Assembly (NCBI GenBank): GCA_038889235.1
Contig: JAWAHN010000001.1
Coordinates: 814,852-846,851, forward strand
Direction of reading: 5' to 3'
Origin: Candidatus Jordarchaeales archaeon
Lineage (GTDB): Archaea > Asgardarchaeota > Jordiarchaeia > Jordiarchaeales > Freyrarchaeaceae
DNA: 32,000 bases
Shown: piece by piece, positions 5,027 through 31,562 of the stretch
Layout: each line of letters starts with the position of its first letter
Position numbering within the stretch: the first letter of the stretch is position 1
Notes under the pieces: model-generated
Databases searched by the model: none
The model's input: the letters and a program-made list of their open reading frames with translations, nothing else
Told to the model about the DNA's origin: nothing
Program-made: the position numbers and the translations under genes

Positions 5027-5599
5027 ATGTCGCTTGACGAAAAGACCGCAAAGAGGCTTATCCGGGTACTCCAACAAGTAGAGGATACCACCAAACTTGA
5101 GGGAGTTGCAATAGTAAATAGAGATGGGTTAAGAGTCGCTTGCGCGGAGTCGGCTAAAGTCGATGTCGACACCATTTCAACGGCTTCAGCGGCAATAATA
5201 AACACTAGTGAGACGACCGCCGCGCAGCTGGGGCATGGAAACGTTTCTGAGGTAATAATAAAGGGTGATTCAGGATACCTAATTATAACGAGAGTTGATG
5301 ACCAACATTTCATGGTTGCATCAAGCAGAGACATTATGAGATTAGGGTTAAATCTCGGAATTCTTAAGAGGTACGCGCGATCTATAGCAGAACTTCTCGC
5401 ACAATCAAAGGCTAAAGTAGCAGTACCACAAACGATAATAACACAACCGATTTTGCCTCCTCCAGCAGTTAGTAGAGAAGAAACTGTCAGTGACAAGGAG
5501 GCGATCTTTGAAGCTCTAAGAGCTTTAGGGCTCGAAGACGCAGTTACCGAAGTGCAAGTTCAAAGCAGGAAAGGAGAAGAAAGAACAGAGAGAATATGA
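5027..5599 (+). CDS. Roadblock/LC7 (MglB-like) domain protein with a C-terminal tail
   Basis: 190 aa. LEGVAIVNRDGLRVA...TISTASAAIINTSETTAAQLGHGNVSEVIIKGDSGYLIITRVDD is the typical Roadblock/LC7 pattern. It is followed by a low-complexity Pro/Glu-rich tail of about 70 aa. Confidence 0.65.
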   Translation: MSLDEKTAKRLIRVLQQVEDTTKLEGVAIVNRDGLRVACAESAKVDVDTISTASAAIINTSETTAAQLGHGNVSEVIIKGDSGYLIITRVDDQHFMVASSRDIMRLGLNLGILKRYARSIAELLAQSKAKVAVPQTIITQPILPPPAVSREETVSDKEAIFEALRALGLEDAVTEVQVQSRKGEERTERI

Positions 5600-11719: not shown

Positions 11720-12295
11720 TTATAGGATCTTCCATACGAGTTTATCTCCAACATATTTGCGGTAAACATATATGCCGTCTTGGAAGACTCTTGGATCCTT
11801 TTCTCTGATTTTTGTTGCTTGTTGTATATTTGCAGCGCTTTGCCCCACAGCCTCAATGTCTATACCTGTTAATATTACGTCGTCTTTTTCTACTTTGACA
11901 TTTACTCCTGGAAGAACGTAAGTTTTCCTAGGACTTTTTTCGCCTAGGAAGTTTTCTATGATCACTTCTCTAGACTCTGGAACAAATTTTACACTAATTG
12001 GGAAGTGTGCATAGACAATTTTCATAACATACTTGTAACCTTGCGTCACACCTACGATCATATTCTTAATATGACTTCTCACACTGCCTAGAACAGCCAA
12101 CTGCTTCTTTTTTGGATAATAGGCTTCCAAAACGATTTTATTATCTTCTTTTCTTATGGAAATCCCTCTTGCATGTGAAAAATCCTTTTCCAGCTCACCT
12201 AGAGGGCCCTTGACACGCACTTTCATGCCATCAATGTCCACGTTTACATTGTCAGGAATTTTAACTTCGAGAGCTGCATGGAACGTCTTGACCAT
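11720..12295 (-). CDS. rpl6: 50S ribosomal protein L6 (uL6), inverted relative to the rest of the cluster
   Basis: 191 aa on the minus strand. VKIPDNVNVDIDGMKVRVKGPLGELEKDF...GVTQGYKYVMKIVYAHFPISV...IENFLGEKSPR...GIDIEAVGQSAANI. Confidence 0.93.
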   Translation of the reverse strand: MVKTFHAALEVKIPDNVNVDIDGMKVRVKGPLGELEKDFSHARGISIRKEDNKIVLEAYYPKKKQLAVLGSVRSHIKNMIVGVTQGYKYVMKIVYAHFPISVKFVPESREVIIENFLGEKSPRKTYVLPGVNVKVEKDDVILTGIDIEAVGQSAANIQQATKIREKDPRVFQDGIYVYRKYVGDKLVWKIL

Positions 12296-12382: not shown

Positions 12383-12964
12383 TCACTTTTTAATACGTTC
12401 ACTCCACTCCTCAAGCTTGCGCATTAGTTCTTCAGCAGTCTTAATGTCTAATTTCGCTTGCCCGCTCATCCTTAATTGCTTAATGAACTGTGAAATCTCG
12501 TAAAATATTGGACCGTGAACCCTTGATTGCAACTGATCTCTAGCAACCTCCAGCGCATTTGCTATAGCCTCGGCAGGCTGATTTCTTTCGACGAGCTCGA
12601 CAACTTGCGAAAAGGCAGGGGAAAGGCGTACACCGAAACTTTTAACGGTTATCTCCCTTTCAACTGGCAGAGTGGGTTGAACGGGAGCAATCCCTTTTTT
12701 AGCAGAAACGAGTTCTTCAAACCTGCCCCCAGAAAGTTCTTCGAGACGTTTTACCACACTCAAAGCTTCGTCCATTTTCGTGATTAAGACGGACATGCCA
12801 CCAAGCGCTCTGTATATTTCATTCAGCATGCTTCTGAGCTCGTTTAACACCGTTTTTATTTCACCGAATACGCCAAATATCGCTCTTGAAAAGTCGTCGA
12901 GAACTATTTTAACAGCAGATATCTCCTCCAAGACTTTTTCAAATTTCTTATCCATTTCCCCCAA
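12383..12964 (-). CDS. hypothetical alpha-helical protein inserted between rpl6 and rpl32e
   Basis: 193-aa ORF with strong helical/heptad-like composition (EEISAVKIVLDD..., LNELRSMLNEIYRAL, AEELMRKLEEWSERIKK). I recognise no family. Confidence 0.5.
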   Translation of the reverse strand: MGEMDKKFEKVLEEISAVKIVLDDFSRAIFGVFGEIKTVLNELRSMLNEIYRALGGMSVLITKMDEALSVVKRLEELSGGRFEELVSAKKGIAPVQPTLPVEREITVKSFGVRLSPAFSQVVELVERNQPAEAIANALEVARDQLQSRVHGPIFYEISQFIKQLRMSGQAKLDIKTAEELMRKLEEWSERIKK

Positions 12965-16533: not shown

Positions 16534-18189
16534 ATGACGAGCACTTTTTTAAAATCTTTTAAACCGCTAATCCGCTTAATGCCAGAAGTCAAACCTCCAG
16601 AGCGGAGGGTTAGTTTTAGAGAAAAACTGGTGTGGACAGGGGTCATACTTCTTTTATATCTCATAATGGCTAACATTCCCCTTTACGGTGTTCCAAGAGG
16701 GCAAGGGTATGACTACTTGTACTTCCTCAGGCTCATCTTTGCTTCTTCGAGAGGAACATTGATGGAGCTAGGAATAGGGCCTATAGTAACAGCCGGCCTT
16801 ATCATGCAGCTACTTGCAGGCTCTAAATTGATTGATGTCGACTTCTCTAATCCAGAGGATAGGGCGCTTTTTACCGGGGCGCAAAAAGTTCTCGCAGTTA
16901 TAATGACTATGTTTGAGGCAGCAGTGCTCGTACTTGCTAAGACTTATGGTGACCTGTCAAGTTACCAGGCAACACTGGTTTTTCTCCAGCTAACAATTGC
17001 AGGAATCATCCTTATACTGATGGATGAAACTCTTCAGAAAGGCTGGGGGCTTGGAAGCGGAATAAGCTTGTTTATAGCCGCTAACGTAGCAGGGCAAATT
17101 TTGTGGCTTTCGTTAAATCCAAACATTAGCCCATACGACTACCTTGGAAGCGGAGTATTGGTTGCATTAGTTCAGGTTCTAACGTTTCAGTACTGGCCTG
17201 TTGCTTCAATGTTCTTTTATGTTTTGGGTTCATACCCAACCGTTGAACGGTTTAGTGAAAAAGCTATTACAGCAGCAACTGAAGCGGCAACTTACATGTA
17301 TTACTATATGATATTCAACCCAAACACTGGAATATATTACGTCTTATTTAGACCACACGGCCAACCAAACGTAGTCGGCCTCATAGGCACCTTGATAATA
17401 TTCTTAATAGTCGTTTACATACAGAGCGTGCGGGTCGAAATACCCCTTCAATATGCAAGGTTTAGAGGATTCAGGGGAAGATACCCGATTAAGTTCCTCT
17501 ACGTGTCAGTGATACCAGTAATTTTAGTTCACGCTATAAGCGCAAATATATTACTAATTTCGCAGGCATTATGGTCTAATTACGGCTATGTTTCGGTAGC
17601 ACAACTCATACCACTTCTCTCTACCTACCTGCCAGATATAAACTGGAGCGGGCTATCGAGCTTAGCTAATATGGGTTGGAATTTCAACCCGATAGTTAAC
17701 CTGATCGGGCAGTATGCTCCTTCAACAACAAATTTAAACCAGCTGACCCCCATAGGGGGCATAGCGTATTACTTCTCGACACCATACGGACTTGAAAATG
17801 TGTTTAGAGACCCGGGGCGGGCGCTAATTTACCTTCTTATCTTTTCATCCCTTTGCGCTGTATTATCATATATCTGGATAGACGTCTCAGGAATGAACGC
17901 AAAAGATGTAGCTAAACAGTTGATAATGGCCGGAATGCAGGTTCCAGGGTTTAGAAGGTCACCAAAGGTGATAGAAAAAATCCTTGAAAGGTATATCCCA
18001 CCAGTCACCGTCCTTGGAGGGTTCACTGTTGGTTTGCTAGCAGCGTTTGCCGACTTTCTTGGCACTTTAGGAACAGGAACAGGGGTTCTACTAACGGTGG
18101 GAATAATTTATAACTACTATGAGTTAATTGCAAAAGAGAGATTGGCAACTATAAGTCCCGCGCTTAGGGGATTGTTGGGATTGGAGTAA
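16534..18189 (+). CDS. secY: preprotein translocase subunit SecY (unusually long, 551 aa)
   Basis: LMELGIGPIVTAGLIMQLL, YPIKFLYVSVIPVIL, GGIAYYFSTPYGL, GTGTGVLLTVGIIYNYYE. Two long loop insertions relative to the roughly 440-470 aa archaeal SecY proteins I recall. Confidence 0.95.
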   Translation: MTSTFLKSFKPLIRLMPEVKPPERRVSFREKLVWTGVILLLYLIMANIPLYGVPRGQGYDYLYFLRLIFASSRGTLMELGIGPIVTAGLIMQLLAGSKLIDVDFSNPEDRALFTGAQKVLAVIMTMFEAAVLVLAKTYGDLSSYQATLVFLQLTIAGIILILMDETLQKGWGLGSGISLFIAANVAGQILWLSLNPNISPYDYLGSGVLVALVQVLTFQYWPVASMFFYVLGSYPTVERFSEKAITAATEAATYMYYYMIFNPNTGIYYVLFRPHGQPNVVGLIGTLIIFLIVVYIQSVRVEIPLQYARFRGFRGRYPIKFLYVSVIPVILVHAISANILLISQALWSNYGYVSVAQLIPLLSTYLPDINWSGLSSLANMGWNFNPIVNLIGQYAPSTTNLNQLTPIGGIAYYFSTPYGLENVFRDPGRALIYLLIFSSLCAVLSYIWIDVSGMNAKDVAKQLIMAGMQVPGFRRSPKVIEKILERYIPPVTVLGGFTVGLLAAFADFLGTLGTGTGVLLTVGIIYNYYELIAKERLATISPALRGLLGLE

Positions 18190-20777: not shown

Positions 20778-20815
20778 TACTTAAATAAGAAGTAGTGGTG
20801 GTTGTGTTGCCCAGG

Positions 20816-21852
20816 ATGCTCCCGCCGGAGGGTGTAAAGAGGAAAATTATAGTTAAAAGTGATGACGAAACTAGCGAAGAATATGGTAAGCGCCCTGAAG
20901 AGAGAAGCATTGAAGAGCACTTGAAGGGATGCTTCGTTAACATAGATAAACCAGCAGGACCTACTAGTCACGAAGTCTCTTCTTGGGTTAGGAAAATTTT
21001 GGAGTGCTCGAAAACGGGGCACGCCGGAACACTAGAGCCCCTTCTCAATGAGGGGGGCGGTGAAATCCTAAGGTTACCGGCGTTCTACCAGTGGCTATAG
21101 GTTCGGCTACCAAGCTTGTACAAGCTCTTCACCTTATAGGGAAAGAGTATGTATGCGTTATGAGGTTGCATGGCGATGTTGACCCGGAGAGAGTTCAAAG
21201 CGTCTGTAAGGAGTTTATTGGACCGATTTATCAAAGGCCTCCAATACGTTCCTCTGTGAAGCGGAGGCTTAGGGTGAGACAAATATACTACCTTGATGTG
21301 CTCGAAATTGAGGGGAGAAACGTCTTACTAAAAGTGGGGTGCGAGTCTGGCACGTACATAAGGAAGCTTTGCCACGACATAGGAGAAGTCTTGGGTTGTG
21401 GAGCGCACATGCGTGAGCTTAGGAGAACGCGTAGTGGACCATTTACTGAAGACAATATTGTAACTTTGCACGACTTAAAAGATGCTTACGTTTTCTGGAA
21501 GGAAGAAAAGGACGAGACATATATTAGAAAGGTGTTATTACCCTTGGAGACTGGAGTGCAACACTTACCCAAGTTTTACGTGCGTGACTCAACTGTTGAT
21601 GCCATATGCCATGGAGCAGATTTAGCCATTCCCGGAATTGTCAAAGTTGAAGATGGAGTTGAAAAAGGGGATGTTGTGGCGATTTTGACGCTCAAAGGCG
21701 AACTTGTCGCCCTAGGGACTGCAATGATGACGCTTGAGGAAGTTATGAGGGAGAAAAGAGGTATAGCTGTTAAGACAAAAAGAGTGGTGATGGAGAAGGG
21801 TACGTATCCGAAGCTTTGGAAGAGCAAGAAAGAGTCGAACAAAAGTGGGTGA
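20816..21852 (+). CDS. cbf5: tRNA/rRNA pseudouridine synthase Cbf5 (H/ACA RNP catalytic subunit), interrupted by a 29-nt BHB intron: join(20816..21035,21065..21852)
   Basis: Two ORF-track pieces lie in different frames. The first ends ...KTGHAGTLEPLLNEGGG...* and the second contains (KVTGVLPV)AIGSATKLVQAL.... Splicing gives ...GHAGTLD|PKVTGVLPVAIGSATKLVQ, restoring the TruB/Cbf5 catalytic GTLDP motif. A PUA domain follows at the C-terminus. The product is 335 aa. Confidence 0.9.
21036..21064 (+). other. BHB mRNA intron in cbf5 (29 nt)
   Basis: The central 4-bp helix is cact 21030-21033 paired with ggtg 21059-21062. The 5' bulge is aga at 21034-21036 and the 3' bulge is aaa at 21063-21065. 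The inner helix is gcccc 21037-21041 paired with ggggc 21054-21058. The outer helix is weak, either gga/tcc adjacent or cgccgg 21022-21027 with ccggcg 21077-21082. The boundary is ambiguous by 1 nt with an identical product. Confidence 0.85.
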
Positions 21853-29306: not shown

Positions 29307-29885
29307 TTAAATAATTTTCGTGGAGGATAACCATTCTGCGAGCTTTCTGAGAGCCTTCGCCCTATGTGATAGTGCGTTCTTTTCTTCTATGCTGAGCTCG
29401 GCAAAACTTCTTCCATCTCCCTCACTTGGTATGAATATCGGGTCAAACCCAAAACCAAGGTTACCCTTAACTTCATGGGAGATGAATCCCGAGGTGCGTC
29501 CTTCAAATGTTAACACTTCCCCTCCATCCGTGAACGCTACGACAGAGACAAATTCAGCCCGCCTGTTTCTGACGTCTTTCATGAGCTTCAAAATACCTTC
29601 GCAACCTATCTTGCTGAAAACGTATGAGGAGTAAGGTCCGGGGAATCCTTTGAGCGCCTCTATAAAGAGGCCAGCGTCCTCAACGAAAAACGGACACTCG
29701 GGTTTCATCTCTGACATAATCCACGTTAGACTCGCCCTAGCTATTTCCTCCAAACTTTCCGATTGTATTTCAAGGCGCTTTACATTCCACTGCTCAACAA
29801 TTATTCCGTATTCAAGGAAAATTCTGCTTGCCTCCTGAAACTTGTTCTTGTTTCCTGTGACGAAAAGAATTCTCATCTTTCCCAA
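29307..29885 (-). CDS. non-canonical purine NTP pyrophosphatase (Ham1/RdgB ITPase family)
   Basis: ILFVTGNKNKFQEA...VEDAGLFIEALKGFPGPYSSY...GFGFDPIFIP...SFAELSIEEKNALSHRAKAL. Confidence 0.88.
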   Translation of the reverse strand: MGKMRILFVTGNKNKFQEASRIFLEYGIIVEQWNVKRLEIQSESLEEIARASLTWIMSEMKPECPFFVEDAGLFIEALKGFPGPYSSYVFSKIGCEGILKLMKDVRNRRAEFVSVVAFTDGGEVLTFEGRTSGFISHEVKGNLGFGFDPIFIPSEGDGRSFAELSIEEKNALSHRAKALRKLAEWLSSTKII

Positions 29886-30508
29886 TAACGCCCCCTCCTT
29901 TCGATCTCAAACATCTTCTCTATGACTTCGTTTGCACCCTCAAAGGCCTCCCTGTATCCTTCGAGGACTGCATTGAAACCCTCCTCGAAGACATCATAGT
30001 GGCTGCTTTCCATTGCACGCTTCATCAAATGAAGATCCACGCCTAGATCTTCGATGTTCTTTGAGAAATCACCCAGACCAAAGTCTATGAGAAAGACTTT
30101 TCCATCACTAACTATCATGTTCGACGTGGTGAGGTCCCCATGGACTATTCCTCCCTTGTGAAGCCTTCCTATTAGAACACCCACTTTACGTAAAAGTTCG
30201 GTTAGCTCTTCACGCGAGAGTTTTCTCTCTCTTATAAGGTCGCTTAGCGTTACCCCCTCAATGCGATCCATTACTATAGAAGTTGACTCGGGATCCACAA
30301 GGTAAACTGTCGGGGTAGGAACCCCAACTTTCTTGGCACTATGGAGTAAGCGTGCTTCACGAAAAACCCTCTGCTTCCTTAAACCGACGTCTAAGTCCTT
30401 AACCCTATACGATTTGGGCCTACGCTCCTTGACAACAACCATGCGGTTTAAAATTGTTTTTAAGAAAAGGTAGGCTTCGGCACCTTTCCTAATAATCATG
30501 ACATTCAC
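29873..30508 (-). CDS. bud32: KEOPS subunit Bud32 (RIO-type atypical kinase)
   Basis: IIRKGAEAYLF...HKGGIVHGDLTTSNMIVSDGKVFLIDFGLG. GTG/ATG start overlapping the kae1 stop. Confidence 0.88.
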   Translation of the reverse strand: MNVMIIRKGAEAYLFLKTILNRMVVVKERRPKSYRVKDLDVGLRKQRVFREARLLHSAKKVGVPTPTVYLVDPESTSIVMDRIEGVTLSDLIRERKLSREELTELLRKVGVLIGRLHKGGIVHGDLTTSNMIVSDGKVFLIDFGLGDFSKNIEDLGVDLHLMKRAMESSHYDVFEEGFNAVLEGYREAFEGANEVIEKMFEIERRGRYWER

Positions 30509-31562
30509 CCTTCAATCCACGTTACCTGGACTTCATCTAGCCTCCACCTGGGCTTAACGTAGCTCTCTTCGATGCTTAAAGTTCTTCCATAAAGGTACTC
30601 TAATATCCCCGTCCAGGCAATCATGGCTCCATTGTCCCCTGCAAGCTGGTGGGGGACCACGTGAAAGGTGGCATCATGCTCCTCGGCTACCGCCCTGATC
30701 ATCTCCTGCAATCTATTATTCCTACCGACTCCACCAGTTAAGAGCACACTGCTTTTTCGCGTATGAGCCAAAGCTCTCTCAGTAACTTCAGCCAACATTG
30801 AGAAGCAAACTTCTTGTACACTGTAGCATAGGTCTTCGATCTTACAACTACCAATTTTGCCCACCGCGGCGGTGTAGACCCCTGAAAATGAAAGATCCAT
30901 GCCTTTGACGACGTATGGTAGTGGGATAAATGTTTGCCCCCTCCTCGCCAGCTCCTCTATCTTTGGCCCACCTGGATGCTTTAATCCCAAGGCCCTTGCA
31001 AACATGTCCAACATGTTTCCAATTGCTAGGTCTAAGGTCTCACCGAAGACACGGTATTTACCCTTCTCGTAAGCCGCAACTATAGTGTTACCTCCCGACA
31101 CGTAAAGCGTTAATGGGTCATTGACGTTTTCGGTGAGACGGCCTATTTCAATGTGCGCCAGGCAGTGGTTAACCCCAACTAGGGGAACACCTAACAGTAG
31201 CGCCAGTGCTCTAGCTGCCGTCGCCACAGTTCTTAGGCAGGGGCCTTTGGAGGCTTCGCTAACCCCGGCCCCTGGGAGAACGCGACAAGCCCTATTTCTT
31301 TTATATTAATGCCCGCTGTCTCTATAGCGGAAGCTATCACTTGTTTAACGACATTGGAATGGTGTTGCGCAGCCTCTCTGGGGTGGATTCCCCCTTCCAA
31401 GGGGACGTATTCGTCTTTAACGTTCGCTAATATCTCTCCTTCACTGCTTACTATGCCTACACCTAGCGTGTGAGCTGTTCCCTCGATGCCGACGCACAAT
31501 AGGCGGCGGGAGCCTAGTAACTCCCTGACTTTTTTCAGAGTAACGTTGTTATTCGCTTTCAT
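30505..31562 (-). CDS. kae1: tRNA N6-adenosine threonylcarbamoyltransferase Kae1 (KEOPS catalytic subunit), interrupted by a 14-nt BHB intron: complement(join(30505..31246,31261..31562))
   Basis: Two ORF-track pieces lie in different frames: ...[16 protein letters not shown]...HPREAAQHH...[17 protein letters not shown] and (V)[28 protein letters not shown]...GDNGAMIAW.... The splice gives FSQGPGL|[15 protein letters not shown], the canonical Kae1/TsaD motif, and a 347-aa product. The true start may be the internal TTG just before CVGIEGTA. Confidence 0.85.
31247..31260 (-). other. BHB mini-intron in kae1 (14 nt, sense agcgaagcctccaa)
   Basis: The sense strand reads aggggcc|gggg|tta|gcgaagc|ctcc|aaa|ggcccct. 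The outer 7-bp helix is 31273-31267 with 31245-31239. The central 4-bp helix is 31266-31263 with 31252-31249, with one G.U. The two 3-nt bulges are 31262-31260 and 31248-31246. The inner element is a gc(gaa)gc mini-hairpin. The boundary is ambiguous by 1 nt with an identical product. Confidence 0.8.

Follow-up and report, generated by a model that had tools for sequence, protein, structure and literature searches.

The stretch of DNA analyzed here, which we call the window, comprises 32,000 nucleotides (nt) of Candidatus Jordarchaeales archaeon (contig JAWAHN010000001.1, positions 814,852 to 846,851; all coordinates given below are window positions). On its minus strand the window carries kae1, an essential tRNA-modification gene which encodes the N6-threonylcarbamoyladenosine (t6A) synthase Kae1 and whose reading frame is interrupted by 14 nt at 31260..31247. 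Our data indicate that these 14 nt are very probably a genuine archaeal bulge-helix-bulge (BHB) intron, spliced out from within the kae1 coding sequence of an archaeon of the Jordarchaeia, a class of Asgard archaea.

As it stands in the genome, kae1 is read as two open reading frames (ORFs). The first (31562..31233) encodes 109 amino acids (aa) and ends at the stop codon at 31235..31233, whereas the second (31227..30505) encodes 240 aa in a different frame; ORF calling therefore bore out the statement, made in an initial annotation of this DNA, that the unspliced product would be a 109-aa fragment. The same annotation had proposed that removal of 14 nt restores the FSQGPGL|GP motif and a 347-aa Kae1, and this was also found to be correct. 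Excision of 31260..31247 generated an ORF of 1044 nt whose 347-aa product scored 507 bits against the TIGR03722 (arch_KAE1) family (cutoff 375) and aligned with Methanocaldococcus jannaschii Kae1 (5jmv) without gaps through the junction, across the FSQGPGLGPxLR motif (query FSQGPGLGPCLR vs. FSQGPGLGPSLR). The predicted spliced junction reads ...CCGGGGUU|AGGCCCC..., and the gene would be composed of the following parts:

31261..31562, minus strand: kae1 exon 1, with its ATG at 31562, ending with TT, nucleotides 1-2 of a Leu codon; after splicing it would encode residues 1-100 and two-thirds of Leu101 of the 347-aa Kae1
31247..31260, minus strand: putative 14-nt BHB mini-intron, AGCGAAGCCTCCAA (also given as AGCGAAGCCUCCAA), whose excision restores the frame and the sequence FSQGPGL|GPCLR
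30505..31246, minus strand: kae1 exon 2, whose first base, A, completes the Leu codon; stop codon at 30507..30505

The break coincides with a motif of the type outer helix, bulge, central helix, bulge, inner helix (hBHBh'). The minus strand from 31273 to 31239 is AGGGGCC GGGG TTA GCGAAGC CTCC AAA GGCCCCT, read in the codons of the unspliced frame as TTC TCC CAG GGG CCG GGG TTA GCG AAG CCT CCA AAG GCC CCT GCC TAA, and the stretch that forms the BHB extends over 31274..31238, with these elements:

31267..31274, minus strand: outer (exon-exon) helix h, 5' strand, CAGGGGCC, codons Gln-Gly-Pro; pairs with 31245..31238
31263..31266, minus strand: central helix H, 5' strand, GGGG; pairs with 31252..31249 (CUCC)
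31260..31262, minus strand: 5' bulge UU|A, predicted cut after 31261
31253..31259, minus strand: inner mini-hairpin GC(GAA)GC (h'), of 2 base pairs (bp) only
31249..31252, minus strand: central helix H', 3' strand, CUCC; variants in relatives are CCCC and CCCU
31246..31248, minus strand: 3' bulge AA|A, predicted cut after 31247
31238..31245, minus strand: outer helix h, 3' strand, GGCCCCUG, codons Gly-Pro-Cys

The sequence, the bulges, the central helix and the GC(GAA)GC hairpin were as the initial annotation had described them. It had also recognized the exon-exon helix, although this helix has 8 bp instead of the 7 bp it claimed, as the C at 31274 pairs with the G at 31238. The central helix GGGG/CUCC consists of 4 bp, including one G.U pair, and separates two 3-nt bulges that lie on opposite strands, each of them 3' of its central-helix strand. 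This placement has what we take to be the handedness of the canonical hBHBh' motif, that of the 37/38 pre-tRNA intron. The predicted cuts follow the rule for archaeal introns, by which cleavage separates residues two and three of the bulge (PMC2738675).

The insert was not restricted to this genome. In a search of 5.8 billion proteins with the spliced Kae1 as a query, the closer matches among the best 120 (87-95% identity) were all C-terminal pieces of 240-244 aa, and the contigs encoding them showed an identical gene order, S24e-S27ae-kae1(N)-kae1(C)-bud32-ham1-S15, and an identical split; insert-bearing protein clusters were found on 9 and 17 contigs. The spliced form of the protein was absent from these best 120 matches, a result that is uninformative on splicing. 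A scan of one genome per species identified one extra split kae1 (L066, from Candidatus Jordarchaeia RPF2) and 79 other loci, from Bathyarchaeia, Methanomethylicia, Hydrothermarchaeota, methanogens and eight other Asgard genomes, whose match lengths were all multiples of three; the motif was located in 59 of these loci and was uninterrupted there in all 59. A metagenome scan, looking for kae1 exon ends 9-39 nt apart, added ten more loci that represented five further distinct variants. The resulting intron-bearing set comprised 11 distinct kae1 sequences, drawn from Jordarchaeia-like genomes in about 16 independent assemblies, with inserts of the following lengths:

13 nt: L081
14 nt: the window, L084, L083, L086 and L090
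28 nt: L114
29 nt: L066 and L098
30 nt: L093 and L097

Of these, L083 (contig JAWBOA010000180, from the metagenome-assembled genome (MAG) HHBFW-2_201803_bins_15) has been classified as Asgardarchaeota; Jordarchaeia; Jordarchaeales; DTBI01 (PMC11094006, supplement). The initial annotation had suggested aligning the kae1 loci of related genomes, and the outcome strongly supported an intron: inserts of 13-30 nt occupied the identical codon in 11/11 sequences, and in every one of them a cut after the second nucleotide of each bulge removed the insert in frame, leaving an intact ORF that reads ...GPGL|GPCLRT... at the junction. At the third position of the 3' bulge, which gives the last base of the Leu codon, A was present in 11/11. 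The inner helix, in contrast, varied with the length of the insert. In the long class (28-30 nt) a genuine hairpin of 7-9 bp abuts the bulge and the central helix, forming a strict hBHBh' motif, while in the short class h' is reduced to 2 bp, as in the window, or to 1 bp, as in L081.

Long-class and short-class kae1 introns, of 30 and 14 nt, were found on different contigs (L097 and L105) of a single Joint Genome Institute (JGI) sample, Ga0190363. As both classes are present there on separate contigs, two Jordarchaeia-like lineages with different forms of the intron co-occur in this sample.

The pairing of the motif was conserved even where its sequence was not. In the alignment of the 11 sequences standard pairs occupied 97.4% of the pair cells, vs. 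38-66% when the partners were slid by 1-3 columns; 17 cells had changes on both sides, and the observed values were reached by 0/500 shuffles, a statistic that overstates independence since the 11 sequences are related. The outer helix kept its 8 pairs and was 97.7% paired across sequences, and the four pairs of the central helix were 100% paired across the 11. Within the outer helix, two pairs of third codon positions are the informative ones, because the Gly and Pro codons dictate the remaining positions of the helix, and both showed compensatory changes: one occurred as GC, AU, UA, CG and UG, with a single mismatch, and the other as AU, GC and GU, also with a single mismatch. These two pairs were complementary in 10/11 and 10/11 of the intron-bearing genes, but in only 25% and 42% of the 59 intron-less kae1 (Fisher 5e-7, or 1.4e-4 when the intron-bearing set is limited to the six sequences recovered through protein similarity). 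Similarly, the exonic GGGG strand, made up of the third base of a Pro codon and a whole Gly codon, was invariant among the intron-bearing kae1 genes and was present in 6/6 of the protein-found sequences vs. 3/59 of the intron-less ones (p = 1e-6). Selection has therefore acted on the pairing itself. In most of the intron-less genes (59 loci, L001-L080), 6-7 of the 8 pairs of the outer helix are already in place, as the GPGxGP codons are self-complementary (GGNCC...GGNCC); this suggests that GPGxGP may be a site prone to harbor a BHB intron.

Purifying selection acts on both exons. In pairwise comparisons with the relatives, the ratio of nonsynonymous to synonymous substitution rates (dN/dS) was 0.04-0.1 for exon 1 and 0.02-0.05 for exon 2, with dS saturated between lineages, which implies that selection at the protein level was kept throughout the divergence of these lineages while the insert was retained. 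Moreover, the GPCLRT codons placed right after the junction, which lie outside both unspliced ORFs, were kept via synonymous changes (TGC/TGT, CTA/CTG/TTA/TTG, AGA/AGG and ACT/ACG). This result implies that translation in the exon-2 frame is required from the junction onward, and it bears directly on the alternative that kae1 is a split gene, with the 109-aa and the 240-aa ORFs translated separately and assembling into Kae1, or that the BHB is a cleavage or regulatory site for the endonuclease EndA at which no ligation follows. Split protein genes occur in some archaea, and gene finders call both ORFs in every relative. However, the conserved GPCLRT codons fall past the stop of the first ORF and ahead of any start of the second, the C-terminal ORF varies between relatives in its nominal start codon and in its length (240-244 aa), and the break falls within an invariant motif that solved Kae1 structures show as continuous. 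We therefore consider a split gene or a cleavage-only site to be very unlikely.

A second alternative is translational recoding, in which the ribosome would cross the insert through a programmed frameshift, or would hop over it (bypassing), with the RNA left unspliced. There is a precedent for confusing the two processes, since archaeal cbf5 introns were at first mistaken by other authors for translational frameshifting (PMC2738675), and a stable hairpin could in principle stimulate recoding. Nevertheless, the inserts of 13, 14, 28, 29 and 30 nt would require shifts of +1, -1, +1, -1 and 0, respectively, at one orthologous site, and in-frame TAA (in the 13-nt form) or TGA (in the 30-nt forms) codons precede the entry into the downstream frame. 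Recoding would also add 4-10 variable residues inside the invariant GPGLGPxLR, and what is conserved across the insert is a pairing geometry and not a peptide. No slippery heptamer shared by the sequences was seen on inspection, and programmed frameshifting or bypassing is recognized by a slippery or take-off site that is conserved, together with a shift that is the same in all orthologues, a combination that the kae1 loci lack. Together, these observations make recoding highly improbable.

In one genome an out-of-frame insertion within a conserved motif resembles a lesion, but the possibility that the 14 nt are a lesion of a dead gene, or a sequencing or assembly error, has a negligible probability, given that 11 sequence variants, coming from about 16 assemblies and samples independent of one another, carry the insert, that both exons have the low dN/dS values described above (0.02-0.1) despite saturated dS, that no other lesions exist and every full-length relative has an intact ORF once spliced, that no second, alternative full-length Kae1 with more than 68% identity was found among the best 120 protein matches, and that bud32 and an ORF of the Pcc1 family are retained beside kae1. 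An assembly artefact and a decaying pseudogene were two of the situations that the initial annotation had named as fatal to its proposal; the number of independent assemblies excludes the first, and no sign of the second was seen. The neighboring kinase gene is:

29873..30508, minus strand: bud32 (KEOPS kinase gene), with a 4-nt overlap with the kae1 stop codon; 234 bits against TIGR03724 (arch_bud32)

If the 14 nt are indeed a BHB intron, the Gln-Gly-Pro codons of the kae1 pre-mRNA would pair with the downstream Gly-Pro-Cys codons, an exon-exon helix that forms naturally from these codons because GGNCC is self-complementary. The outer helix and the 4-bp central helix would then expose the two 3-nt bulges to EndA, the endonuclease of tRNA splicing, which would cut after the second nucleotide of each of them, and a ligase of the RtcB type would join the exons to produce ...GGG UU|A GGC CCC..., encoding ...GPGL|GPCLR..., and with it the full-length 347-aa Kae1; mRNA that remained unspliced would yield only the 109-aa fragment. 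An (alpha-beta)2 EndA with an L1 loop conferring broad specificity has been reported for Asgard archaea (PMC5829648), which makes the presence of a suitable splicing enzyme plausible.

Several points weigh against a spliced BHB intron in kae1. Cleavage by EndA at UU|A and AA|A, ligation by RtcB, release of the 14 nt and the existence of a spliced mRNA are steps that we infer from the DNA, and the genes for EndA and RtcB do not lie within the window. Given that h' has only 2 bp (1 bp in L081), the 5' bulge is effectively part of a 10-nt loop; the motif of the window would thus be effectively a bulge-helix-loop (BHL), a relaxed substrate that would need an EndA of broad specificity. Such enzymes do act on relaxed BHB and BHL motifs (PMC12397907, PMC2738675), and a hetero-oligomeric EndA cleaves the relaxed motifs of cbf5 pre-mRNA (PMC2738675). 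Apart from the relatedness of the sequences, already mentioned, five of the 11 were found with a DNA pattern in which CCGGGG and GPCLRT were obligatory; these two features are not independent evidence in those five, and it was for this reason that the statistical tests were repeated without them. Shapes of this kind are also common by chance: a permissive scan (outer helix of at least 5 bp, inner helix of at least 2 bp, G.U pairs allowed, intron of 11-120 nt) returned 120 in the window. The shape of the motif alone is for this reason weak evidence, and it is the comparative data that carry the case; the probability that one such shape hits the sole position and length that restore the frame and the invariant motif was about 1.7e-5 per window. 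Finally, the minimum free energy (MFE) structure predicted by ViennaRNA for the 35-mer used a shifted register (-19.4 vs. -16.7 kcal/mol for the BHB), and the folding z-scores were only -1.6 to -2.0 (about -2 for the 35-mer).

Thermodynamic folding was dropped as a proof, since with a shifted MFE register and such low z-scores it neither supports nor refutes the BHB. The kae1 motif had 69% G+C, vs. 44% for the window. Searches of the window with Rfam and ARAGORN found no tRNA and no known RNA family, and ARAGORN found nothing on 21 related loci, so that they offered no tRNA introns for comparison.

A second gene of the window, cbf5, also turned out to be interrupted. An unbiased ORF-joining test flagged a split in this gene, located about 10 kb from kae1:

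21036..21064, plus strand: predicted BHB intron of cbf5, 29 nt, with exon 1 at 20795..21035 and exon 2 at 21065..21852

The unspliced ORF 20795..21100 ends with GHAGTLEPLLNEGG...* and the canonical continuation lies in another frame. Excision of 21036..21064 produced a 342-aa Cbf5 that aligned without gaps with that of Pyrococcus furiosus, the predicted junction being ...ACACUAG|AUCCUAAG.... In this motif the central helix is formed by CACU (H) and GGUG (H'), the 5' and 3' bulges are AG|A and AA|A, respectively, and the inner hairpin is GCCCCUUCUC-AAU-GAGGGGGGC. At this site, the Jordarchaeia relatives L115, L117, L119 and L120 had inserts of 30, 31, 30 and 36 nt that shared the central helix (CACU/GGUG) and the bulges (AGA, AAA) of the window and had covarying hairpins, and the canonical Cbf5 motif was restored in all of them. 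The insert interrupts the codon of the catalytic Asp (G|AU), the same codon that is interrupted by the intron of crenarchaeal cbf5 (PMC2738675). Judging from these features, it is an in-genome precedent for inserts of the BHB type in the mRNAs of the Jordarchaeia lineage.

A 14-nt BHB-like match at 21054..21086 that also joined the cbf5 ORFs was rejected; it yields GTLEPLLNEGGGESVLPV, whereas the 29-nt excision gives the canonical motif and is backed by the relatives. Three further ORF-joining matches (+18064, -9910 and -22333, in script coordinates) resembled joins of adjacent operon genes. The combination of a relaxed scan with the ORF-joining test was abandoned as an intron finder, as neighboring genes of operons dominated its output (174,672 configurations).

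Besides an element in the 5' untranslated region (UTR) of a Haloferax mRNA, only the cbf5 mRNA of Crenarchaeota was known to have a BHB intron (Schwarz et al. 2020, PMC7714728), in agreement with the initial annotation, for which cbf5 was the only established protein-coding case in archaea. Its suggestion that a kae1 intron may be undescribed is also consistent with our full-text literature search, in which no report of a kae1 intron or of a BHB intron in an Asgard mRNA was found, although the coverage of this search was incomplete and absence from it is not proof. The paper describing Jordarchaeia makes no mention of introns or of kae1.

The closest known system is the crenarchaeal cbf5 intron of Desulfurococcales and Sulfolobales (Watanabe 2002, Yoshinari 2006, Yokobori 2009; PMC2738675). 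Like the insert in kae1, it is a short BHB-type insert in a coding sequence, it breaks a catalytic or structural motif that is invariant in an enzyme of RNA modification, it varies in length, often not being a multiple of three, and its motif is often relaxed; its predicted cuts likewise separate bulge residues two and three, and cbf5 introns have been linked to hetero-oligomeric EndA. The two differ in their host gene, kae1 being that of the t6A synthase, and in their lineage, Jordarchaeia (Asgard) vs. Crenarchaeota. In addition, the kae1 form is smaller, 13-14 nt in the clade of the window, and its exon-exon helix is made of the self-complementary Gly-Pro codons of GPGxGP. Splicing of cbf5 was demonstrated experimentally, whereas that of kae1 is deduced from sequence. 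A feature of the crenarchaeal-type family is a location in cbf5, at the catalytic Asp codon, which the insert at 21036..21064 shows and the one in kae1 does not.

With archaeal pre-tRNA introns, at position 37/38 and at non-canonical positions, the kae1 element shares the geometry and handedness of hBHBh' and, presumably, the enzymes EndA and RtcB. The initial annotation had placed it at the extreme small end of BHB introns. It is indeed near the lower end, but 13-14 nt still falls inside the range of 11-175 nt of tRNA introns (PMC2738675). Unlike these, the kae1 insert has no tRNA body around it, and its helices are made of codons, constrained both by the protein and by the pairing. The BHB in the 5' UTR of Haloferax volcanii HVO_1309 (PMC7714728) likewise occurs in an mRNA; EndA acts on it, and its excision matters for expression. 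That element, however, lies in an untranslated leader, whereas the kae1 insert is in the reading frame and its removal must be exact to the nucleotide. The splicing of the eukaryotic HAC1 and XBP1 mRNAs by IRE1 and RtcB (PMC13149111) also combines an endonuclease with a ligase to remove a short mRNA intron and change the frame independently of the spliceosome, but there the endonuclease is IRE1 and the motif a twin stem-loop, so that the likeness is an analogy which implies no homology. Considering the structural features that can be read from the DNA, the kae1 element probably works like the BHB introns of cbf5 and of tRNAs.

Asgard archaea are the closest known archaeal relatives of eukaryotes. 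An intron in kae1 would add a second host gene to cbf5, the only one since 2002, and would be the first BHB intron in an mRNA reported for Asgard archaea. The 13-14-nt forms of kae1, being near the geometric minimum of a BHB, would represent a natural minimal substrate to study the specificity of EndA. There is also a practical consequence, as public annotations split kae1 into two genes (L081-L087; clusters P0001, P0011, P0017 and P0054) and NCBI names the C-terminal piece 'TsaD'; because Kae1 is annotated as two pieces, surveys of gene content can take it to be fragmented or truncated in these MAGs.

That a window of 32 kb holds two predicted BHB introns, both of them in genes for RNA-modification enzymes (kae1 for t6A37 and cbf5 for pseudouridine), led us to consider that Jordarchaeia may use mRNA splicing by EndA and RtcB more broadly than any archaeon described. 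We regard this as a doubtful proposal; if true, such splicing could couple the synthesis of both enzymes to what the tRNA-splicing machinery can handle, and the position of the cbf5 insert, at the codon interrupted in Crenarchaeota, could mean that a protein-coding BHB intron predates the split between TACK and Asgard. A regulatory link between tRNA splicing and the production of Kae1 and Cbf5 is speculative.

The window contained other features that are unrelated to these introns. The gene for ribosomal protein L6, a full-length match to its NCBIfam family, is located on the minus strand between S8 and L32e, within a ribosomal-protein operon of the plus strand. Two features correspond to this region:

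11720..12295, minus strand, and 12383..12964, minus strand: the L6 gene plus an adjoining ORF of 193 aa that has no family match

This arrangement looks like a local inversion, and the sole inverted repeat found near L6 was a weak one, of 18 nt and 83% complementary. The two remaining features are:

16534..18189, plus strand: SecY, 551 aa vs. a profile of 464 positions, which it matches in two stretches
5027..5599, plus strand: a Roadblock/LC7-domain protein of 190 aa, upstream of the ribosomal cluster

The match of SecY in two stretches suggests an insertion of roughly 80-90 residues, and the Roadblock/LC7 domain is one that is often noted in Asgard genomes.

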